Shown here piece after piece: positions 5 through 58,718 of a stretch of DNA of 64,000 nt. The translations under genes were made by a program, and so were the position numbers. Numbering within the stretch: the stretch's first letter is position 1; each line of letters begins with the position of its first letter. Location: the IMG/VR virus record IMGVR_UViG_3300020165_002937; one strand, given 5' to 3'. The DNA is from a virus. The notes under the pieces were generated by a model. That model searched no databases and had not been told where the DNA came from. It saw only the letters and a list, made by a program, of their open reading frames with translations.

Positions 5-1201
5 ATGTATACTGGCTCAGCCGACTTCTTAACCGGCGCCGCACTACAGGTAAATTACGTATATAAAAAGTTAGGCGGAGATGTAATAGATATTGAGCTT
101 ACACCAGCAAATGTGTACTCAGCATATGAAGAAGCTGTGCTTGAATATTCGTATATAGTAAATCTTCACCAAAGCAAGAATGTTTTATCTGATTACCTGG
201 GTAATGCTACAGGCACATTTGATCATCTGGGGAATATCAAATCTGGCTCCCTTTCCGCTAGTTTGGGCGGAACCCATGTTGAGTTGAAGACACCAAAAAT
301 GCATTTTTCAATTGCAAAAAGAGTGGGAGACGGCATGGCATCCATCAGTGGAATGGGAGGTAGCCAGAGGCAGTACTCAGCTTCGTTTGCCCCAGTGGAT
401 GATGTACAAGACTATGATCTCCAAACAATTGTAAAAACAGCATCTGACAGCGGTAAGGATGACGCCGGCCGGAATATTGGTTTTTCTGGCAAGGTTGAGA
501 ACAAAAGAATTATCGTAACAAAAGTGTTTTATAAATCACCAAGAGCTATGTGGAGGTTCTACGGATATTACGGAGGAGTCGGAGTTGTAGGAAACGGTTC
601 CACATACGGTCAATTTGCTGATGACTCGACATTTGAAGTAATACCTACGTGGCAAAATAAAATGCAAGCGATTATGTATGAAGATTCGCTTTTCACTAGA
701 ACCTCTCACTATTCATACGAAATTATAGCAAACCGCTTAAGACTGTACCCGTCACCTAGTGACTATTCCTTTGGTCCTGACGACAGGATCTTTTTTAAAT
801 TTTACGTAGAAGAAAATGCGTGGGAAGAGGCCGATTCGTTCGAATCAGGCGTCAACGGCATCAATAACATGAATACGCTGCCTTTCGGTAACATACCGTA
901 TAACAATATTAATTCGATTGGCAAACAATGGATTCGCAAATATGCATTGGCGCTTTGTAAAGAAATGCTAGGCCAAATCCGAGGTAAGTTTACCACAGTG
1001 CCAATCCCAGGAGAAAGTGTAACGTTAAACCACAGCGAATTGTTATCTCAAGCGAAAGAAGAACAGACTGAGCTTAAAGATAAATTAAGAGATATGCTTA
1101 AGGAAATGGAATACCCAGAACTCATGAAGAAGGACCAAGAAAAGGCAGACGCAGCAACCGCTACTCTAAAGAACTCCCCACTGCCAATTTTTGTAGGATA
1201 A
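5..1201 (+). CDS. Neck protein, T4 gp13-like (probably 5'-truncated by the window edge)
   Basis: C-terminal 'WIRKYALALCKEMLGQIRGKF..PG..VTLN...L.QAKEE' is typical of gp13-like neck proteins; lies upstream of the tail genes. Confidence 0.75.
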   Translation: MYTGSADFLTGAALQVNYVYKKLGGDVIDIELTPANVYSAYEEAVLEYSYIVNLHQSKNVLSDYLGNATGTFDHLGNIKSGSLSASLGGTHVELKTPKMHFSIAKRVGDGMASISGMGGSQRQYSASFAPVDDVQDYDLQTIVKTASDSGKDDAGRNIGFSGKVENKRIIVTKVFYKSPRAMWRFYGYYGGVGVVGNGSTYGQFADDSTFEVIPTWQNKMQAIMYEDSLFTRTSHYSYEIIANRLRLYPSPSDYSFGPDDRIFFKFYVEENAWEEADSFESGVNGINNMNTLPFGNIPYNNINSIGKQWIRKYALALCKEMLGQIRGKFTTVPIPGESVTLNHSELLSQAKEEQTELKDKLRDMLKEMEYPELMKKDQEKADAATATLKNSPLPIFVG

Positions 1202-1209
1202 ATTAAACA

Positions 1210-1698
1210 ATGTCGAATGAATGGAAAAAACCTGGCGCACCACCACCACCTTTATTTCTTGGAAAAAAAGAAAGAGACTTTGTAAAACAAATTAACGATG
1301 AGTTAATAGAAAAAGTAATTGGACAACAGATATTATACTATTCTATTGACCTAGCCACTACTAACTTTCATGAGTTATACGGGGAAGCTGTTGAAAAAAC
1401 GTTTTTGCCGCCTATAAGAGTATATGCCCTTGTCGAATATACCGACTTCTCTACCGATTACATGGAAGATGTAGGGATAGACAAGAGCTGGGAGGTTATG
1501 GTCCATTTTCACAAAAGAAGGTTGGAGGAAGATCAAGATCTGTATGTTAGAGAAGGTGATTTTGTTCTTTATAATGATAGTTACTATGAAATAGTCAAGC
1601 TTACCGAGCCTAAATTACTTTTTGGGCAAGCCGGACAAGATTTTGAGATAGCTGCCAGATGCAGAAGAGCGAGAAGAGGACTTTTTAATGCTTCCTGA
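1210..1698 (+). CDS. Neck/head-closure protein, gp14-like
   Basis: 'LYGEA..K.F..P.....VEY' and 'EGDFV' motifs; synteny after the gp13-like gene. Confidence 0.65.
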   Translation: MSNEWKKPGAPPPPLFLGKKERDFVKQINDELIEKVIGQQILYYSIDLATTNFHELYGEAVEKTFLPPIRVYALVEYTDFSTDYMEDVGIDKSWEVMVHFHKRRLEEDQDLYVREGDFVLYNDSYYEIVKLTEPKLLFGQAGQDFEIAARCRRARRGLFNAS

Positions 1699-2602
1699 TA
1701 ATTTTGACTTTGCGTTACTGCCAGTTGACGCATCTAAAGCAACCTTAAAAGAAATTGGAATGCTTTCTTCAACGATAGAGACTATCGACTATGCAATGGT
1801 GTCGTGGTTGAAAGAAGATTTAAAATTGTCGGCCGTAACTAATGAAGGCAACCGAAAAGTACCCGTTTTGTGGCAAACCCCCGAGCGCTCCTTCCAGATA
1901 AAAAACGCTAAAGAGTTGAGAGACGATGACGGCGCCTTAAAATTACCGGTCATTTCGATTCAAAGGACCGCAATGACGAAAGACCCCAATAGAAAAGGTG
2001 GATTTCAAGCGCATTTATATTCTAAAGATCAGAATGGGCGCGCCGGCAGGATAGTGATTGCAAAAAGAATAGTTGAGGACAAAACTAGAAATTTTGCAGT
2101 AGCCGGCAATACCCGAGTTGATCCGGGCGCCGTAGCCCCGAAACCAAGTTTGGCTTCGGGCAAGAAAAAACAAATGTGGTTCCCGAGAAAGAATAACAAA
2201 ATAGTAATACAGTCTTTATCAATCCCAATACCAGTTTATATAAATATAGACTACAAGATTGTGATGAAAACAGAATACCAACAGCAAATGAACGAACTGG
2301 TGGCACCCTTCATTGCGAGAACAGGACAAATAAACTCTTTTGTGTTAAAACGCGATGGCCACCTATACGAAGCGTTCATTGAACAAAATTTTGCACAAAG
2401 CAATAATGTGGCTAATCTAGGTGAGGATACACGCCTTTTCCAAACTGAAATAAATATAAAAGTCTTAGGGTATTTGATCGGCGAAGGAAAAAATGATGAC
2501 AGGCCCATTGTAAGGATAGATGAAAATGTTGTAGAAATCTCCTTTCCGCAAGAAATGGTGGCCCCTCCAGGCGACTGGAACTTCTTCGGCAATGTAAAAT
2601 GA
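1688..2602 (+). CDS. Tail terminator/sheath stabilizer, gp15-like
   Basis: 'VPVLWQTPER', 'LPVISIQRT', 'PVYINIDY'; directly before the sheath gene. Confidence 0.6.
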   Translation: MLPDNFDFALLPVDASKATLKEIGMLSSTIETIDYAMVSWLKEDLKLSAVTNEGNRKVPVLWQTPERSFQIKNAKELRDDDGALKLPVISIQRTAMTKDPNRKGGFQAHLYSKDQNGRAGRIVIAKRIVEDKTRNFAVAGNTRVDPGAVAPKPSLASGKKKQMWFPRKNNKIVIQSLSIPIPVYINIDYKIVMKTEYQQQMNELVAPFIARTGQINSFVLKRDGHLYEAFIEQNFAQSNNVANLGEDTRLFQTEINIKVLGYLIGEGKNDDRPIVRIDENVVEISFPQEMVAPPGDWNFFGNVK

Positions 2603-2666
2603 TGCTTCCCGAGAGGAAAGCTATAACTTTTTATTAGTTCCTGAACAGCCTTTTGAGTTTAAAAAC

Positions 2667-2674
2667 ACTATTTA
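2667..2674 (+). promoter_or_regulatory. Putative late promoter motif ACTATTTA
   Basis: (A/C)CTANTTA recurs upstream of structural genes (also 5824, 7613, 28057, 40288, 48750, 52264, 53085, 54522). Confidence 0.55.
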
Positions 2675-2724
2675 ATGTATGATTGCAGCATCACACATCT
2701 AATTTATTGAGGGGAAGTTAAAAC

Positions 2725-5700
2725 ATGTCAGTCAAAAAATTCAAATTCGTATCTCCTGGAGTGTTTATCAATGAAATTGATAACTCCTTTATACCAAAGT
2801 CCGCGGACTCTATTGGTCCAGTTGTCATTGGTCGCTCTGCACGCGGCTTAGCGATGACCCCAACAAAGGTTGAGTCTTACTCACAATTCATTGAATTGTT
2901 CGGCGATACCGTTCCTGGTAACGGCGGCGGCGATATCTATCGTTACGGCAACCATCAATCACCGATGTATGGTACTTATGCTGCGAAAGCTTTCCTGCGC
3001 GCAAACGTTGCACCGCTTACTTATATTAGGCTTTTAGGTCAGCAGACTTCTGCTGGTTCCGCAGCCGGCGGCGATGCCGCAGCAGGTTATAAGACAACGC
3101 AGAACTTAGGAACTGCCGTGGCCTCCAAGTCTAGCGCAAATGGTGGTGCATATGGTCTTTTTGTGGCCAAGTCAGGATCTTCCATGGACCTTGTCGGAGA
3201 GGCCTCCGGTGCGCTCCACTTGGCAGCAGTTTTCTACGTGAACACTGGCTCGGTCCAACTTCAAGGTACTTTGCGTCAAGGTAATGATGCCGGCGCCGGC
3301 GGTACGTCTTCCGTTGGTCAAGTTGTACAAGCTGCAGGCGCCGTTGTATCGATGGGCTCTGATGGCTTATTCACATTAATTGTTAGTGGCTCAAACAAGG
3401 GCAACCGAAAGATTAAGTTCAACTTTGATGACTCCAGTGACAAATTTATTCGTCGCCGCGTGAACACAAACCCGCAGCTACTCTCAACAGCTGGAACTTT
3501 CTATCCGCAATCAGCGGCCGACGATATTGTTTTGGGCGAATCTTTTGAGCAAGAGCTTCGTGATCGTAGCTTGGCTACATCAACTACTCTTCACGGAGTT
3601 GTTCTTGGTCTCGCTCTGAGCGGTACCGCGGCTACTGGTCCTCATAATCTCGAAGGCCAAGCGTCAACAGAAGCCAGATCCGGCTGGATTATTGGTCAAG
3701 AAATTGATGGAGTCACTACTGACTTTCAACCACAAGCTCAACAAAAGCTTTTCCGTTTTAAAGGCCGTGGCCATGGCGGATGGTTGCATAAGAACATAAA
3801 GATATCCATAACGAATATCAGAAAGTCTAATACAACCACTACAGACTACGGAACGTTTACAATATTGCTTCGCGATATTAACGATACCGATAATAATGTT
3901 ACTGTTATGGAAAGATTCGACAATTGCAGTCTTGATCCCAAATCTCCAAATTATATTGCCCGAGTAATCGGCGACAAATATGTCGAATGGGACGCTAACG
4001 AGCGCAGACTTAAAGAATACGGTAACTATGCCAACCAGTCGAAATATATCTGGGTTGACATGAATGATAAAACTGATCAAGGTGGAACTGAACCTTCACT
4101 CCTCCCATTCGGCTACTTCGGACCTCCCAAGTTTAGAAACTTGCTGAACGCCAAAGATGCCAGTGATTTTGAAAACTCATTTATTATCAACGCACAAGGC
4201 TTGAGCGGTAGCGGTAACGTCGCCGGCTGTACAGCTATGAGTGGCGCTGGCGCTGTTGGCCAGGCGCCCACGGCCCAAGGCCATAGATATGCGATTAACG
4301 TCGGCGGGGGGTCGGTCAAATTGGGCCGTACCGCCACTGACGGCCTTTCCTTCATTCCTATGCAAGCAGCCACAGCCTCGCTGTTCTTCCCTAAAGATCG
4401 CTTGCGGGTGTCAGCCAGTGCTGGCGGACAATCAGATCCAACCGACTCTTACTTTGGTTTCTCAACTACGAGGACAAGTGGGTCCACTCGCGCTGATGCA
4501 AGTGTCCTTGATACTCACAACTTGTTATACGGCGGCTTTCCAGATGATATTACATCGGCCAACGGTACACCAGAGCTAAACCCAACTGCATACCCGGGCA
4601 TTGATGCTTATTCATATGTATTCAGTCTTAATGATGTTGTTCTCGACGTTAACGGCAACTACTACTACGAGTCTGGTTCCCGTGACAATACTGATGGCAC
4701 TAACGCCAATAGAGCCAAAGGCTCCGTGACCTCAGCTTCAATTGATGGATTACTGAACGCAGGATACGGTAATTTCACAACACCACTGTACGGCGGTTTT
4801 GATGGATTTGATATCTTCAAACCAGATCCACTTTATAACAAAGCTATGGGGGCCTCAGCTACCGAAGATACGAGCTACGTGTTTCACACATACCGTAGAG
4901 CGATTGACACGGTTTCTGATCCAGAAGTTACTGATATGAATATCTTGACAATCCCGGGCCTCACAAATAACTCATTGACTGAGCACGCAATCAATGTTTG
5001 CGAAGCTCGTGGAGATGCAATGGCACTCATCGATCTTCCAAGCGTATACGTACCAAATCATGAGGAATACAACGCGGATAAATCGTCAGCAATTCAAACT
5101 ACGCCAGTAAGAGCAGCTGAGGCTCTCAGAACCCGCAGGATTGACTCAAGCTACGGTGCCACATTCTACCCATGGGTGCAGACCCGCGATGATAACACAG
5201 GCGCCAACGTTTGGATTCCGCCTACCGTAGCGATGCTCGGTGTGCTAGCTAGCTCGCAAGCCAAAACAGATGTATGGTTTGCTCCAGCAGGCTTCAACCG
5301 CGGCGGCTTAACTGACGGTGCGGCTGGAATTTCAGTTATCGGAGTAACCGAGAAGCTTACAAGCAAACAACGTGACACGTTATATGATAGCAACATCAAT
5401 CCAATCGCTTCATTCCCATCAACTGGAATTGTAGTGTTCGGCCAAAAGACACTCCAAGAGCGCCAAAGCGCACTTGATAGAATCAACGTCCGTAGATTGG
5501 TAATTTACTTGAAGAAACAAATCTCGATTATATCCTCACAGGTACTTTTTGAGCAAAATGTACAGTCAACTTGGAATCGATTCAAGTCGCTGGTTGAGCC
5601 ATTCCTCGCGAATGTCAAGGTCCAGTTCGGTATCACTGATTACCGTCTGATCCTCGATGAGTCAACTACGACGCCGGACCTCATTGACCAAAATATCCTC

Positions 5701-17993: not shown

Positions 17994-18847
17994 TATCGAT
18001 TGTGGGTATTGGCAACGGCGCCTCAGCCATCGCAGAAAAATTTGCTTCTAACTCAAGTAACTATAATGCGTATTCGTTGAACACCAAAGTGGCGAAAAGG
18101 ACCAAATACAAGTTCAAACTAAAGACCTTCAGTACGCCAGAGGAATATGAAAAAAACATTCCTGATGTTAAAAAATTCTTTAAAGAGATCGATGAGCATG
18201 TGCAGGTGTTCGTGCTTGGGTCTTCGTATAGTTCAAATTACACTCTTGGCATTTTAGAGCAAATAAAGCACAAAAAGCTGGACGTGTTCTATATTCAGCC
18301 TGACATAGAGTTAATTTCGGGCATTCCAAAATTAGTAGAACAAGCTTGTTTTGGTGTATTGCAGGAATATGCGCGCTCCGGGTTGCTAAACTCACTCACT
18401 CTTATATCAAATTGCAAAATGGAAGATGCGTTAGTAAACGTGCCCGTTAAGAGTTACTTTGATGTAATTAATAGCTCCGTGTTCTCTACCGTGCATTACC
18501 TTAATTACTTTAATCACGCTGAACCCGAAATTGGAAATGTGTCTAAGCCAAACAAAATTAATCGGCTCAGAACCATTGGATTATTGAACATGGAGAATTT
18601 TCAAGAAAAGTGGTTATTTGACCTTGACACGCCTCGTGAACTATGTTATTATCTTTGTATAAATAAAGAAAAATTAGAAACAGAAGGCGGGCTTCATAGA
18701 AAAATCGTTGATCTCTTAAAAAAGAAACCAACGAATGCATATTGCAAATTGTCGTATGCGATTTATGAAACTGAACATAAAAGAGACTTTGGGTTTTGCG
18801 TTGCCCACACTAACGTAATTCAATCAAAAAAACCCTTGACAAGCTAG
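17990..18847 (+). CDS. Divergent tubulin/FtsZ-family (PhuZ/TubZ-like) protein
   Basis: N-terminal 'IVGIGNGASAIA' T1 loop, 'YIQPD', 'LISN'; the GGGTG(S/T)G signature is degenerate. Confidence 0.55.
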   Translation: MISIVGIGNGASAIAEKFASNSSNYNAYSLNTKVAKRTKYKFKLKTFSTPEEYEKNIPDVKKFFKEIDEHVQVFVLGSSYSSNYTLGILEQIKHKKLDVFYIQPDIELISGIPKLVEQACFGVLQEYARSGLLNSLTLISNCKMEDALVNVPVKSYFDVINSSVFSTVHYLNYFNHAEPEIGNVSKPNKINRLRTIGLLNMENFQEKWLFDLDTPRELCYYLCINKEKLETEGGLHRKIVDLLKKKPTNAYCKLSYAIYETEHKRDFGFCVAHTNVIQSKKPLTS

Positions 18848-18864
18848 AGCAAGGGTGATACATT
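18836..18864 (+). promoter_or_regulatory. Sigma70-type promoter for SSB
   Basis: TTGACA-N17-TACATT. Confidence 0.55.
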
Positions 18865-18919
18865 AGATGCTGAGGAACGCTCAGTATACTTTACAACAAC
18901 AAAACAAGGAGAAAAACTA

Positions 18920-19696
18920 ATGTCAATCAATATGGAACTAATGCGGCGAAAGCTTGCAACACTACGAGGCGAAGGAGGAGATAACAGAGACTCAATCTGG
19001 TTCAAGCCAGATGAGGGTGATACTGATATCCGCATCGTACCTACATCGGACGGAGATCCGCTGAAGGAAATGTTCTTCCACTATAATGTTGGGGATCACA
19101 AGGGTGGCATCATGTGTCCAAAGAGAAACTTTGGAGAATCGTGTCCGGTATGTGAATTTGCTTCCCAACTATGGCGAGAAGGGGTAGATAACAATGACGA
19201 AGAAAGCAAGAAGCTTGCGAAGTCACTGTTCGTTCGAACCCGCTATTTCTCACCAGTCGTTGTCCGCGGCCGCGAAGACGAAGGAATCAAGGTCTATGGT
19301 TATGGCAAGCAAGCTTATGAGCTGCTTCTTGGCTACATTCTTGACCCTGAGTACGGTGACATCACCGATTCGCTAGAGGGTACCGACATCACGCTTACTT
19401 ACACTAGGCCCACACACCGTGGTGCATTTCCACAAACAAACTTAAAGATGCGTCGTAATACATCTAACTTGCTAGAGGATAAGGAAGCAATCCCCGCCCT
19501 CCTTGAGCGTATGCCAGAATTTGGCTCGCTATTTGAACGCCTTAGCCCCGCGCAAGTAGACGAAATCTTGGATGGCCAGCTTTCCAGCGACAAGACCGCT
19601 GAAAGCCGATCATCCACACTAACTAAGCGCTTTGGTCCCGCTGACGGTAAGAAGAGCGAAGTAGACCGAGCTTTTGATGAACTAGTAGCTGGTTAG
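18920..19696 (+). CDS. Single-stranded DNA-binding protein, gp32-like
   Basis: 'WFKP..G...IRIVP', 'CP......CPVCE', 'YGDITD...G.D', acidic C-terminal 'AFDEL'. Confidence 0.85.
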   Translation: MSINMELMRRKLATLRGEGGDNRDSIWFKPDEGDTDIRIVPTSDGDPLKEMFFHYNVGDHKGGIMCPKRNFGESCPVCEFASQLWREGVDNNDEESKKLAKSLFVRTRYFSPVVVRGREDEGIKVYGYGKQAYELLLGYILDPEYGDITDSLEGTDITLTYTRPTHRGAFPQTNLKMRRNTSNLLEDKEAIPALLERMPEFGSLFERLSPAQVDEILDGQLSSDKTAESRSSTLTKRFGPADGKKSEVDRAFDELVAG

Positions 19697-19711: not shown

Positions 19712-19742
19712 CCGATAGCAGAGCGGGTTTAAATACTCTGCT
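19712..19742 (+). repeat. Structured intergenic element, copy 1 (pseudoknot-like)
   Basis: CCG-AT-AGCAGAG-CGG-GTTTAAATA-CTCTGCT. Confidence 0.75.
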
Positions 19743-19774
19743 ACCTTTTATAAATATACCAAAGAGGATAAAAT

Positions 19775-20323
19775 ATGGATAAGAAAAGAAGAATATTACT
19801 GTCTACGTTAATAAAGACGCTAGAATTTCACCAAATGGACATCGACGAGATGGGTGAATTTTTTGTAGAATTTGAAGACAGCAAGATGGTTGATCAATTT
19901 TTTGGAAAGTTGAGCGCCAAGAAGACAGAGACAAACGAACACGAACAGAACATAATTGTTGTGCGTCTCAAAGATGCCTGCTCCGTAATTGGTGGCGTTT
20001 CGGGCCTCCACTTACATCGCAACAATGTGCCCGGCATTGAGTGCAATAAAGATGGAAAGGTTACGATCGACATGTCGACCGACTGGATTAAGAAGTTTAA
20101 AATTACAGAAGAAGATTTCCGCAATGGAACTAAGAAGCTACTTCGCACTGGCCCAGCCCAAAAGATTTTAGAGTTATCTTCTAACAGCTTTGTTAGAAAC
20201 AGTTACTTCAAAGAAAGAGCAGTTAAATTTGGAAAGCTCTGGGTAGTGGATGCCGAAGCCGTTCAAGAATATAATGGCAGCAGAGGTCAGCCACACATAG
20301 CTCTAGTGAAAGAAGAATCATAA
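19775..20323 (+). CDS. Hypothetical protein (cassette 1)
   Basis: 182-aa ORF with GAGG RBS, between repeat copies 1 and 2. Confidence 0.65.
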   Translation: MDKKRRILLSTLIKTLEFHQMDIDEMGEFFVEFEDSKMVDQFFGKLSAKKTETNEHEQNIIVVRLKDACSVIGGVSGLHLHRNNVPGIECNKDGKVTIDMSTDWIKKFKITEEDFRNGTKKLLRTGPAQKILELSSNSFVRNSYFKERAVKFGKLWVVDAEAVQEYNGSRGQPHIALVKEES

Positions 20324-20327
20324 AATG

Positions 20328-20354
20328 CCGCTAGCAGGCCGGAAATAGCCTGCT
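20328..20354 (+). repeat. Structured intergenic element, copy 2
   Basis: CCG-CT-AGCAGGC-CGG-AAATA-GCCTGCT. Confidence 0.8.
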
Positions 20355-20382
20355 TTTATTTTAACTAAATAGGAGAATCAAT

Positions 20383-20637
20383 ATGTTAGAATGGATTAAG
20401 TCCGCATGGGCTAAATGGAAAGTGCAAGTTAGTGTCGCCGGCGGAGTTCTGGTTGTCGCAACTGCTTATGGCACTTGTTCGGTTGACCCAGCAGCTGTTT
20501 CAGATGCATCATCGACCACAAATGAGACAGTCGAAATCGGCGATGCCGTACAAGTGTCAGCGACAACAGCTGAGACGGAAACAGCACCCGACAATGTTGA
20601 CGCTACAAATTCAGAAACCAAAACTGAAACTGAGTAG
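20383..20637 (+). CDS. Small membrane-anchored protein with acidic Thr-rich tail (cassette 2)
   Basis: Amphipathic N-terminus, hydrophobic segment, Cys, then a D/E/T-rich tail; AGGAG RBS. Confidence 0.7.
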   Translation: MLEWIKSAWAKWKVQVSVAGGVLVVATAYGTCSVDPAAVSDASSTTNETVEIGDAVQVSATTAETETAPDNVDATNSETKTETE

Positions 20638-20645
20638 CAATATAT

Positions 20646-20674
20646 GCCGCTGGCAGACCGGTAAAAAGTCTGCC
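20646..20674 (+). repeat. Structured intergenic element, copy 3
   Basis: GCCGCTGGCAGACCGGTAAAAAGTCTGCC, identical to copy 4. Confidence 0.9.
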
Positions 20675-20692
20675 CTATTTTAAGGAGAGAAA

Positions 20693-20803
20693 ATGAGACT
20701 CGTTCTACCAGTCCTTGCCGTGACCCTATTGTTGGCTTGCGGGGAAAAGGATGAAGACACAGCGGCAGACACCGCTAGCTCTACTGACACAGCAGCAGAG
20801 TAA
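20693..20803 (+). CDS. 36-aa lipoprotein MRLVLPVLAVTLLLACGEKDEDTAADTASSTDTAAE (cassette 3; not in the ORF track)
   Basis: AAGGAG RBS, signal peptide with lipobox LLAC, three DTA repeats. Confidence 0.8.
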   Translation: MRLVLPVLAVTLLLACGEKDEDTAADTASSTDTAAE

Positions 20804-20808
20804 AAACA

Positions 20809-20837
20809 GCCGCTGGCAGACCGGTAAAAAGTCTGCC
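20809..20837 (+). repeat. Structured intergenic element, copy 4
   Basis: 29-bp exact direct repeat of 20646-20674, just upstream of the recA RBS. Confidence 0.9.
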
Positions 20838-20857: not shown

Positions 20858-22009
20858 ATGATGGCAAAAGCAAAAACAAAATCAACGGCCGGCCGCGTAC
20901 CGATGCAAGATTTAATGAAACTAGTTAACAAGAAGGCCGGCCGCAACGTTGCCCATGACTTGACTGGCGAAAACCCAACCGCGGTCAAAGAATGGATCCC
21001 AACCGGCTCACGCTGGCTTGATTCCATCATATGCAAGGGGCAGCTAGCTGGAATTCCAGTTGGTAAAGTTTCAGAGATCGCAGGTCTTGAGGCCACAGGC
21101 AAATCATATATGGCTGCCCAAGTTGCCGCAAACGCTCAGAAAATGGGCAAGGTTATCGTTTACTTCGATTCTGAGTCAGCTATCGACCCAGTATTCTTAG
21201 CGCAGGCAGGGTGCGACCTAGAGCGATTAATGTATATTCAGGCATCTTCTGTAGAGTTTGTTTTGGAGACTATTGAAGAATTACTCGGCGCAACAGATGA
21301 ACAGCTGGTATTTATTTGGGATTCGCTAGCTTTGACGCCCTCGATATCCGATGTTGAGGGGGACTTTAATCCTCAATCTTCGATGGCAGTGAAAGCACGC
21401 ATTTTGGCCAAAGGCATGTCAAAGCTTGTAATACCAATCGCAGACAGTCAAGCGACACTGATAGTTTTAAATCAGCTTAAGACAAACATTCCCCAGGGGC
21501 CGATGGCAAGACAGATCGCGATGACAACGCCGTATATCACACCTGGCGGAAAAGCAATGCACTATTCTTATTCGTTACGCATCTGGCTGACTGGACGAAA
21601 AGCAAAATCTGCTTTTATTGAAGACGAGAAAGGCTTTCGTATTGGCTCTGAAGTGAAGGTAAAACTAGAGAAATCTCGTTTTGGCACACAAGGCAGATCC
21701 TGCGCCTTCCGCATTCTGTGGGGCAACGAGGTAGGTATCCGAGATGAAGAATCGTGGTTTGACGCGATTAAAGGCTCCTCCTCGCTTACGAGTGCCGGCG
21801 CTTGGTACACACTAAAGACGGAAGATGGTTACGAAAAGAAATTCCAGCCATCGAAATGGACCGATATCATCTCTCAGGACGAAGAATTCAGAAGTAGAGT
21901 GATCCAGATCATGGATGAAGAAATAGTTAGCAAGTTTGATAAACGACAGGGTGACGCAAAGAATTTTTATGAAGACCCAGGGGATTTAACCGTCCCACTT
22001 AATGGCTAA
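20858..22009 (+). CDS. recA: RecA/UvsX recombinase
   Basis: 'IPTGS..LD', Walker A 'GLEATGKS', 'YFDSE', 'IWDSL', 'LNQL', 'TPGGKA'. Confidence 0.92.
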   Translation: MMAKAKTKSTAGRVPMQDLMKLVNKKAGRNVAHDLTGENPTAVKEWIPTGSRWLDSIICKGQLAGIPVGKVSEIAGLEATGKSYMAAQVAANAQKMGKVIVYFDSESAIDPVFLAQAGCDLERLMYIQASSVEFVLETIEELLGATDEQLVFIWDSLALTPSISDVEGDFNPQSSMAVKARILAKGMSKLVIPIADSQATLIVLNQLKTNIPQGPMARQIAMTTPYITPGGKAMHYSYSLRIWLTGRKAKSAFIEDEKGFRIGSEVKVKLEKSRFGTQGRSCAFRILWGNEVGIRDEESWFDAIKGSSSLTSAGAWYTLKTEDGYEKKFQPSKWTDIISQDEEFRSRVIQIMDEEIVSKFDKRQGDAKNFYEDPGDLTVPLNG

Positions 22010-22016
22010 AAAATAG

Positions 22017-22070
22017 TTGACAAGCAAGTCCCCATCCATTATATTATATGCTGGATGGGGATTTTTTATT
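22017..22070 (+). promoter_or_regulatory. Sigma70 promoter interleaved with a terminator-like hairpin
   Basis: TTGACA-N17-TATATT; the -10 box sits in the loop of TCCCCATCCA/TGGATGGGGA, followed by a T run. Confidence 0.6.
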
Positions 22071-22108
22071 GGTGCATACCTGCACCGCCTGTTCGCATAT
22101 AAGGAGTT

Positions 22109-58059: not shown

Positions 58060-58145
58060 GGCTGATTGGTGGAATGGTATACACAGGAGACTTAAAATCT
58101 CCCGCCCGTTTGGGCTTGCGGGTTCGAGTCCCGCATCAGCTACCA
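58060..58145 (+). tRNA. tRNA-Leu(TAA)
   Basis: GGAGA-CTTAAAA-TCTCC anticodon arm, long variable arm, GGTTCGAGTCC, encoded CCA. Confidence 0.93.
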
Positions 58146-58150
58146 TTTAT

Positions 58151-58226
58151 GGGTTGTTAGCTCAGTTGGCAGAGCATCGGACTTTTAATCCGTAGGCCGT
58201 GGGTTCAAATCCCACACAACCCACCA
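58151..58226 (+). tRNA. tRNA-Lys(TTT)
   Basis: CGGA-CTTTTAA-TCCG anticodon arm, cloverleaf, CCA. Confidence 0.93.
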
Positions 58227-58234
58227 TTTTACAT

Positions 58235-58311
58235 AGGCTCTTAGCTCAGTTGGTCAGAGCGTCCCGCTCATAACGGGGTGGTCCTCGGTTCAAGCCCGAG
58301 AGAGCCTACCA
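58235..58311 (+). tRNA. tRNA with CAT anticodon (probably Ile2, possibly elongator Met)
   Basis: CCCG-CTCATAA-CGGG; acceptor stem AGGCTCT with C4-G69 as in tRNA-Ile. Confidence 0.85.
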
Positions 58312-58327
58312 TTTAATAGGAGAAAAA

Positions 58328-58531
58328 ATGACATACACAGTTATTTATGAAGAACAAACCACCGGAAACATGGGTACATTTACATTCGTATCAAGACGAC
58401 ATGATAAAAGCTATGCATGGGCAGAGTTTGAGAAAGAGTATGCACAAGAGGGGCAGACACCCATTATGATCATGCCGGGAAACCATCTTGTGTATTTTGC
58501 GTCTGACATTTCTTTTACAAATGTCGCTTGA
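58328..58531 (+). CDS. Hypothetical protein inside the tRNA cluster
   Basis: AGGAG RBS. Confidence 0.6.
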   Translation: MTYTVIYEEQTTGNMGTFTFVSRRHDKSYAWAEFEKEYAQEGQTPIMIMPGNHLVYFASDISFTNVA

Positions 58532-58556
58532 CTTAAACAGTAATTTAAGTTATATT
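58504..58556 (+). promoter_or_regulatory. Promoter of tRNA cluster 2 with TGACA-N6-TTACA repeat
   Basis: TTGACT-N17-TATATT. Confidence 0.65.
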
Positions 58557-58564
58557 ACTAACAT

Positions 58565-58641
58565 GCACCCTTAGCTCAGCTGGATAGAGCATCGGCCTTC
58601 TAAGCCGAGGGCCGTTGGTTCAAGTCCAACAGGGTGTACCA
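58565..58641 (+). tRNA. tRNA-Arg(TCT)
   Basis: TCGGC-CTTCTAA-GCCGA anticodon arm, A in the D loop, CCA. Confidence 0.93.
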
Positions 58642-58642
58642 T

Positions 58643-58718
58643 ACGGGTGTAGCTCAGAGGTAAGAGCAGTCGTCTTATATGCGATTGGTCGCAGGTTCAA
58701 ATCCTGCCTCCCGTACCA
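58643..58718 (+). tRNA. tRNA with TAT anticodon (Ile-type)
   Basis: GTCGT-CTTATAT-GCGAT anticodon arm, GGTTCAAATCC, CCA; one T-T mismatch in the acceptor stem. Confidence 0.8.

Follow-up and report, generated by a model that had tools for sequence, protein, structure and literature searches.

Organization of the SSB-uvsX unit

The window analyzed here is a 64-kb stretch of phage DNA (IMG/VR record IMGVR_UViG_3300020165_002937), and our subject is a short repeated element, very probably an RNA pseudoknot, situated between a gene for a gp32-like single-stranded DNA-binding protein (SSB) and uvsX. The genes follow each other in the order SSB, open reading frames (ORFs) of 182, 84 and 36 amino acids (aa), a UvsX-like recombinase, an exonuclease and a DnaB-like helicase (Table 1). 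Every intergenic gap of the SSB-to-uvsX unit holds one copy of the element, which begins 5–16 nucleotides (nt) past the preceding stop codon (16 nt for copy 1, after the SSB gene) and 18–32 nt ahead of the next start codon. Strong promoter-like sites were found at this unit only before the SSB gene and after uvsX, with none of at least 10/12 matches between positions 18865 and 22016, so that the five genes look like one transcription unit.

Each of the four copies starts with CCG and a linker of 2 nt (AU or CU); a 7-nt arm and CGG come next, and the complement of the arm is reached after 5–9 nt of A-rich sequence. A preliminary description of this locus had reported these four elements together with compensatory changes at three positions of the arm, and it was exact on both counts: the copies lie where it had placed them, and the changes fall at arm positions 1, 6 and 7. 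The pattern CCGMTRGCAGNNCGG has four exact matches in the window and nine with up to two mismatches, a number reached by none of 100 shuffles, and a scan of the 64 kb with the covariance model R1, run with filters off, retrieved only the four copies, at 40.6–51.8 bits, the next best match reaching 10 bits.

In copy 1, stem 1 (S1) pairs 19712-14 with 19724-26, loop 1 (L1) is AU (19715-16), stem 2 (S2) pairs 19717-23 with 19736-42 and loop 3 (L3) is GUUUAAAUA (19727-35); here the S2 hairpin is the minimum-energy fold, at -10.1 kcal/mol. Copy 2 has S1 at 20328-30/20340-42, CU as L1, S2 at 20333-39/20348-54 (AGCAGGC/GCCUGCU) and AAAUA as L3; it is directly followed by a U-run and was also scored as terminator-like. 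Copies 3 and 4 share their core, with S2 formed by GGCAGAC/GUCUGCC and (U)AAAAA as L3, and in both a fourth S1 pair could form (G20646-U20662 and G20809-U20825, respectively). Copy 4 is followed by GCCAUUUUU and then by the ribosome binding site (RBS) of uvsX.

Table 1. Features of the SSB-uvsX unit in the 64-kb window, and examples of tRNA genes adjoining the element in related loci.
Locus	Feature	Position	Strand	Remarks
Window	Sigma-70-like promoter	18836-18864	+	TTGACA-17-TACATT; 10/12 matches, extended TG; 5′ of SSB gene
Window	gp32-like single-stranded DNA-binding protein gene	18920-19696	+	258 aa; PHROG 1192, E 5e-23
Window	Copy 1	19712-19742	+	CCG AT AGCAGAG CGG GTTTAAATA CTCTGCT; 42.1 bits
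Window	ORF, 182 aa	19775-20323	+	No family match
Window	Copy 2	20328-20354	+	CCG CT AGCAGGC CGG AAATA GCCTGCT; 40.6 bits
Window	ORF, 84 aa	20383-20637	+	Family found between elements in most related phages
Window	Copy 3	20647-20674	+	CCG CT GGCAGAC CGG TAAAAA GTCTGCC; 46.8 bits; family consensus form
Window	ORF, 36 aa	20693-20803	+	Open reading frame
Window	Copy 4	20810-20837	+	Core as in copy 3; 51.8 bits, top score in window
Window	UvsX/RecA-like recombinase gene	20858-22009	+	Final gene of unit; PHROG 97, E 1e-58
Window	Terminator hairpin at unit end	22017-22075	+	CCCCATCC...GGATGGGG; canonical, 8 base pairs, G+C-rich, abutting T-run; ordinary terminator of this phage
L078	tRNA-Met(CAT)	414-490		One of several such examples
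L080	tRNA-Met(CAT)	2019-2095		As above
L071	tRNA-Met(CAT)	4902-4978		As above
L033	tRNA-Met(CAT)	3146-3222		As above

Covariation indicates an H-type pseudoknot

The preliminary description had proposed an H-type topology for the element, with CCG pairing to CGG in the loop of the S2 hairpin, and this proposal is supported by related copies. In 80 IMG/VR loci whose UvsX is 82–95 % identical to that of the window we located another 137 copies. They all lie on the gene strand, and GGCAGAC, GGCAGAG, GGCACCC, GGCACAC, GGCGCCC, GGTGCCC, GGCATCC and AGCAGGC are among the variants of their S2 arm. CCG and CGG are invariant in this set, which therefore cannot test S1, and for this reason we searched IMG/VR by stem 2 alone (CTGGCAGAC, 8–15 nt, GTCTGCC), leaving the flanking triplets free. 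Among the matches listed, 69 of the 116 unique ones carry CCG/CGG. The other 47 include 26 with fully paired triplets, in nine combinations, against 5 % by chance (p 2.5e-21); they comprise GCG/CGC (14), ACG/CGT (3), TCG/CGA (2), GCC/GGC (2), CTG/CAG (1) and G-U variants (4). The unpaired matches resemble chance matches within coding sequence. When a control stem 2 (GGCACCC/GGGTGCC) was used, the matches listed comprised 27 true CCG/CGG copies and 71 others, three of them paired, which is the chance level. For bait and control alike, the family is larger than the matches sampled, and baiting with one S2 sequence biases its apparent sequence conservation. The control search also yielded, as a chance find, an unrelated repeat family in which a dispersed hairpin, ACA CT GGCACCC CAA ... 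GGGTGCC ATACTTAACAAG, recurs around positions 2579, 2853 and 3100 of the minus strand of locus L334, at distances of ca. 250–270 nt.

A fourth S1 pair, between the base preceding CCG and the first base after CGG, was imposed in no search. It is present in 77 of 95 and in 30 of 30 true copies among the matches listed, against a background of 33–35 %, and all six pair types were seen. In alignment A1 this pair is formed in 65 % of the sequences versus 44 % in shuffles, none of 500 shuffles being as high, and the value falls clearly when the partner column is slid; a random-column control gave 27.8 % paired. Since A1 was selected for pairing, its 100 % stem pairing is circular and is no proof. 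The first base of S1 covaries with the loop and not with the 3′ flank, so we rejected the extension of the S2 hairpin into its flank as the main cause of the CCG. The CCG-N9-CGG spacing is invariant in 165/165 copies, and two loci with the same L3, L093 (GCG/CGC) and L097 (GCC/GGC), are one compensatory swap apart. By itself the S2 hairpin has a modest stability (-10 to -13 kcal/mol; loop of 8–12 nt), and the added stem 1 therefore plausibly matters.

The element is thus very probably, to judge from this covariation, an H-type pseudoknot of ca. 30–40 nt, in which S1 would comprise 3–4 (up to 6) G-C-rich pairs, (N)NCG with CGN(N). L1 would be of 2 nt, usually CU, and S2 of 7 base pairs (bp), usually GGCAGAC/GUCUGCC, stacked on S1 with no loop 2 (L2) in between; L3 ends in AAUA or AAAA. 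These dimensions agree with pseudoknot stereochemistry, by which a loop of 1–2 nt can span the deep groove of 6–7 bp, and the minor groove of stem 1 would accommodate an A-rich loop 3. The conserved bases are in the helices, the three S2 pairs beside the junction vary freely, and a few covariance-model matches have A-C mismatches at the first S2 pair.

Distribution and genomic context

We found the same element in hundreds of other phages, after SSB, capsid and small-RNA genes. In the UvsX family, the series of copies starts past the SSB stop codon, continues behind members of the 84-aa ORF family and further small ORFs, and ends ahead of uvsX; homologs of the window SSB are upstream of 96 instances of the element, and the 84-aa ORF family adjoins it in 58 loci, upstream of 66 instances and downstream of 41. 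At distances of 6–22 nt, the element follows genes for SSBs from five or more families, for major capsid proteins from several, and for tail-tube proteins from one. A PHROG scan of 100 distinct upstream ORFs from outside the UvsX family classified about 27–29 of them as SSBs of five PHROG families (1192/224, 16 and 10; 112, 5; 7011, 2; 9002, 3; and 44, 3), about 16–21 as major head proteins (PHROG 3437/267, 11; 283, 5; 544, 3; and 212, 2) and three as tube proteins (PHROG 290). By Pfam, a bacterial-type SSB gene, the element and a Prim-Pol/D5 primase gene follow one another in two Sphingomonas genomes, an Enc34-type ssDNA-binding protein is encoded upstream of another copy, and a further copy directly precedes ArdC. 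The downstream genes are mixed, including those for UvsX, a methyltransferase, a tail tubular protein, DNA polymerase and primase.

Copy numbers are low. In phage records of 115–194 kb we counted one to three copies each, none of them outside the SSB region. The single copy of a complete 40.3-kb podovirus is 3′ of its capsid gene, and five bacterial genomes gave one match each, among 150 of the ca. 800–3000 first-pass candidates scored per genome; on these counts we rejected a generic genome-wide terminator. There are one to a few copies per phage or mobile element, in several bacterial phyla. A core with 22 specified bases occurs in 38 GTDB genome contigs, ca. 0.5 chance matches being estimated from the stated size of the collection, and these belong to Lentisphaerae/Victivallales, Verrucomicrobia, Alpha- and Betaproteobacteria, Nitrospira, Myxococcales, Saccharibacteria and others. 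Many are contigs of metagenome-assembled genomes, with uncertain host assignment, and some are 0.4–2 Mb long; natural copies are present in Sphingomonas sp. PB2P12 and Victivallis vadensis DSM 14823. The element is absent from HTVC010P and a Manatee Spring podovirus, which both have capsid proteins 44 % identical to that of the podovirus group, and we found no cultured phage with a copy.

We found co-oriented tRNA genes beginning 6–9 nt past S2 in three or more unrelated contexts, which include a tRNA-Met gene (marine UvsX family), a tRNA-Trp gene (L093 and L137) and a tRNA-Glu gene (L097). In part of the marine UvsX family the tRNA-Met(CAT) gene is located between the last pseudoknot and uvsX, always 8–9 nt past S2 (Table 1). 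In L093 and L137 a drum RNA (RF02958, 72 bits with a gathering score of 43; positions 3449-3554 and 230-335, respectively) ends 30 nt before the element, and the phage tRNA array runs drum, pseudoknot, tRNA-Trp and two tRNA-Thr genes. The upstream unit is here a small RNA (sRNA), and neither a stop codon nor a ribosome is involved. We know of no function for drum, and this fixed drum-pseudoknot-tRNA neighborhood may help in its study.

After genes, the gap between stop codon and element has a sharp lower limit of 6 nt, with a main cluster at 6–10 nt. At that distance the structure would stay folded with a ribosome on the stop codon, with little naked RNA left between them; as a precedent, rpsO and gene 32 have nuclease sites in the interval from stop codon to 3′ hairpin (PMC3014915).

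Other features of the window

The hairpin after uvsX overlaps a promoter-like site (TTGACA-17-TATATT, 22017-22045) whose -10 box is in the hairpin loop, so that a terminator and a near-consensus promoter lie within one hairpin; relatives retain this overlap with other stems, as at position 6170 of L001 and position 3313 of L028. In the leader of the SSB gene (18865-18919), the inverted repeat CTGAG gaacg CTCAG, with arms of 5 bp, precedes an A-rich sequence that is unstructured as far as the RBS; these features may constitute the operator of the SSB gene itself. Copy 1 is followed by TTTTATAAATA (19747-19758), which includes the T4 late-promoter word TATAAATA, and in relatives a conserved TTCTATAA(A) trails elements of the first-copy type; this sequence may be a phage-specific promoter that restarts transcription past the SSB gene.

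By eye, the products of the 84-aa and 36-aa ORFs (20383-20803) look like small acidic proteins of membrane-anchored or lipoprotein type. Four tRNA genes are clustered at 58060-58715 (Rfam tRNA model, 56–77 bits). We found no DNA similarity of the window to GenBank phages, BLAST with the 33-nt element core gave only chance-level matches, and the best match of the window UvsX among cultured relatives is just 32 % identical.

A putative cap for the 3′ end of upstream RNA

Since what the contexts of the element share is the RNA upstream of it, and since they are compatible with read-through and retain the element even where there is no RBS or stop codon, we lean towards a function in stabilizing that RNA. 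The element may well be, as far as its position and conservation allow one to tell, a compact pseudoknotted 3′-end cap, an exonuclease barrier often doubling as a leaky attenuator; we hold this view tentatively. It would act in cis for the RNA upstream, just beyond the footprint of a ribosome at the stop codon. A 3′ end would be created downstream, by RNase P at an adjacent tRNA, by an endonuclease or by partial termination in a U-run, and the pseudoknot would then stall 3′-to-5′ exonucleases. The upstream RNA, encoding SSB, capsid or tube protein or being the drum sRNA, would thus outlast the downstream cistrons and accumulate above them, while these would still be made by read-through. In the window, the outcome would be a stepwise fall in expression from SSB to the three small ORFs and to UvsX.

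Several points weigh against a cap. This function is deduced from position and conservation, and a plain barrier would not obviously need near-invariant GGCA/UGCC and CG/CG across phyla; the conservation of these bases, and of the U before S2, is either demanded by the tertiary fold or reflects a specific partner. The 115–194-kb phages have the element in the SSB region and not at the capsid gene, and therefore a rule by which it marks any highly expressed gene is too simple. Small ORFs also precede copies, and the frequent downstream U-run would suit a terminator equally well.

A specific partner is the basis of the first alternative, which we consider possible though on the unlikely side. 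The pseudoknot would then be a sequence-specific ligand of a universally conserved machine (an exoribonuclease trap, a tRNA-like RNase P signal, or a binder of the ribosome or RNA polymerase), or of a small molecule, and phages and mobile elements would have spread it across phyla to set the output of SSB, capsid or sRNA genes.

A pseudoknot-modulated intrinsic terminator or attenuator is a different, unlikely explanation. S1 and a lengthening of the hairpin by 2 bp (GC with GC, with a bulged U), which brings the stem to the U-run, would be in competition, and the main job of the element would be to halt a fraction of the RNA polymerases. T-runs are indeed enriched 3′ versus 5′ of the element in every G+C class, copies 2 and 4 were scored as terminator-like, RNAfold extends copy 4 by a G-C and a C-G pair with a bulged U, and the 3′ flank is GC in 46 % of the CU-type copies. 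However, the T-run is offset, starting ca. 3–4 nt past the stem after an R-C-N spacer, with T enriched at +4 to +8, and the loop of the G+C-rich stem measures 8–15 nt and is not the short one of a terminator hairpin. At least five T in +3 to +10 are found in about two thirds of the copies from loci below 48 % G+C, being missing from about a third, and in only 2 of the 19 copies from loci above 62 % G+C. Moreover, S1 covaries, whereas L1 does not covary with the 3′ flank. Four copies in series before uvsX, with no internal promoter, require read-through, and the element is therefore not a strong terminator; likewise, where a co-oriented tRNA gene lies directly 3′, transcription must continue, and there is no RBS to regulate. 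The view of the preliminary description that the element is more than a plain terminator is supported.

The same description had considered an SSB-responsive operator before each RBS, on the model of T4 gene 32. In this scheme cooperative binding of SSB would start at the pseudoknot and extend over the A/U-rich stretch and the RBS of the downstream cistron, so that the level of SSB would tune UvsX, polymerase or primase. The T4/T2 gene 32 operator resembles the element in being a phage H-type pseudoknot with coaxial stems and a link to SSB, followed by an unstructured A/U-rich stretch with the RBS (PMC3014915). The layout in the window, with 18–32 nt of A/U-rich sequence between pseudoknot and RBS, parallels that of the operator, SSB genes of at least five unrelated families adjoin the element, and large phages have it in the SSB region only. 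Nevertheless, the T4 pseudoknot is located in the 5′ leader, 67 nt before the start codon of gene 32, and represses gene 32 itself, whereas the element follows the SSB gene and never precedes it: R1 has no match upstream of position 18920, thus none in the SSB leader, all copies are past the SSB stop codon, and an A/U-rich region overlaps the RBS of downstream cistrons only. The two have no sequence likeness, and the present family also occurs after major-capsid and tail-tube genes and the non-coding drum RNA, as well as 6–9 nt before tRNA genes, which have no RBS. One RNA sequence would not be expected to be selected by unrelated SSB folds. The operator is thus a decidedly unlikely explanation, and the association with SSB, while real for the upstream gene, does not concern the downstream RBS.

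A further proposal, which we regard as improbable, is that of a tRNA-like punctuation signal, in which S2 would mimic the 7-bp acceptor stem and S1, stacked on it, the T-stem, and the cistrons would be separated at this site through cleavage or binding by RNase P or a different enzyme acting on tRNA ends. In addition to the fixed 7-bp S2 stacked on S1, this would fit the conserved U at -1, the G at +1 paired to C, and a 3′ flank with a purine first (68–82 %) and C second (48–70 %), as well as the sequence kept across several bacterial phyla and the presence of the element inside tRNA arrays, at a fixed 6–9 nt from real tRNAs. Yet a T-loop mimic is absent, as is CA at the third and fourth 3′ positions, the stacked helix is of 10–11 bp and not 12, and neither ARAGORN nor the Rfam tRNA model recognizes the element. 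Besides, a cut at -1/+1 would remove the 5′ strand of S1, and with it the protection of the upstream RNA.

It is very improbable that the element is an aptamer for a small molecule or an ion, acting as a minimal riboswitch in the size class of preQ1-I, SAM-II or guanidine-III that controls a downstream U-run or RBS. Its size, H-type fold and A-rich L3, its strong sequence conservation across phyla, and the U-run or RBS coming next would all be in keeping with this idea, but the conserved bases are in the helices and the junction-side S2 pairs vary freely, L2 is absent, the downstream genes are heterogeneous and not metabolic, and no Rfam riboswitch family matches.

We give equally little credence to a structure of single-stranded DNA (ssDNA) acting in replication, priming or cassette recombination (attC-like or ssi-like). 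Many neighbors function in DNA metabolism (SSB, UvsX, Prim-Pol, ArdC, methyltransferase), the repeated pattern of an ORF followed by the element recalls gene cassettes, and comparative analysis cannot strictly tell ssDNA from RNA structures (PMC5737381). However, the element is always co-oriented with the flanking genes, and its other neighbors include capsid genes and an sRNA on the 5′ side and tRNAs on the 3′ side. An A-rich L3 across the minor groove is an established RNA feature. S1 has G-U and no A-C type mismatches in the stem-2-only matches listed, which is a weak argument since the filters allowed G-U. Finally, recoding by read-through or frameshift was rejected, as the TAG of the SSB gene is followed by TGA and there is no conserved extended frame in 11 capsid loci.

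Significance

The element appears to define a new RNA family of 30–40 nt, with a fixed pseudoknot geometry and a near-invariant sequence. It recurs in several bacterial phyla, behind those genes whose products unrelated phages, prophages and mobile elements need in the largest amounts. To our knowledge, no pseudoknotted 3′-end stabilizer has been described for bacterial or phage mRNAs; if the element is a cap, it would be one, and a compact, portable part for tuning gene ratios within an operon. If it has instead a specific partner, it would point to an unrecognized step in phage gene expression. It is also of practical use in annotation, as a marker for unannotated SSB and capsid genes in viral dark matter.

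Comparison with known elements

Rfam 15 has no family that matches the element, whether in the window, where both the gathering score and E up to 10 were applied, or at 33 further loci, in agreement with the preliminary description, which did not recognize it as a described family. This covers STAXI (assumed to be in the library), preQ1, SAM-II/V, guanidine-III, pistol, ToxI and drum; the scans found only tRNA and drum, beside the element and not on it. In the literature we found no description of it, although a 2023 catalog of ca. 10,000 viral candidate RNAs (PMC10690425), whose supplements were outside the search, may include it unnamed.

Among the small pseudoknots, preQ1-I has a 5-bp P1, a loop 2 with the ligand-pairing C and a P2 of 3–4 bp, whereas the element has 3–4 bp in S1, no L2 and 7 bp in S2. 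ToxI-like type III antitoxins are tandem pseudoknots of 34–45 nt beside a toxN-like gene; the present copies are separated by ORFs, and neither an Rfam ToxI match nor a toxin gene was seen at the window locus. Compact H-type pseudoknots with a loop 1 of 1–2 nt and an A-rich loop 3 are also known as the frameshift signals of beet western yellows virus and simian retrovirus 1 and the read-through signal of murine leukemia virus. The element is like them in topology, dimensions and distance to the ribosome, lying at least 6 nt past the stop codon, but a slippery site is lacking, and no extended frame is conserved beyond the stop.

STAXI (Weinberg et al. 2010, PMC2864571) is likewise a repeated pseudoknot near genes for Ssb, antirestriction and DNA handling on mobile elements, and for it, too, the choice between RNA and ssDNA is open. 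In contrast to the present units, which are separated by ORFs and have no tetraloop, STAXI is found in tandem (2–3 in a row) with UUCG tetraloops (PMC2864571). Drum RNAs normally end in a terminator (PMC5737381), whose place is occupied by the element in L093 and L137; however, the element is a 3′ module and not the drum fold, and it mostly occurs without drum.

A further comparison is with stem-loops at the 3′ end. T-phi after gene 10 of T7, the "positive retroregulator" of the Bacillus thuringiensis cry genes and repetitive extragenic palindromic (REP) or intercistronic hairpins are 3′ stabilizers or leaky terminators after highly expressed genes. As these do, the element stands directly past the stop codon of genes for abundant proteins, co-oriented with them, often with a U-run and with read-through. 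Those structures are plain small-loop hairpins, little conserved between lineages, whereas the element has a fixed CCG-N9-CGG pseudoknot, with its sequence kept across phages and phyla and a U-run that is offset or absent. As judged from sequence comparison, then, the pseudoknot family, absent from Rfam, would belong to a known kind of structured 3′-end or intercistronic element.

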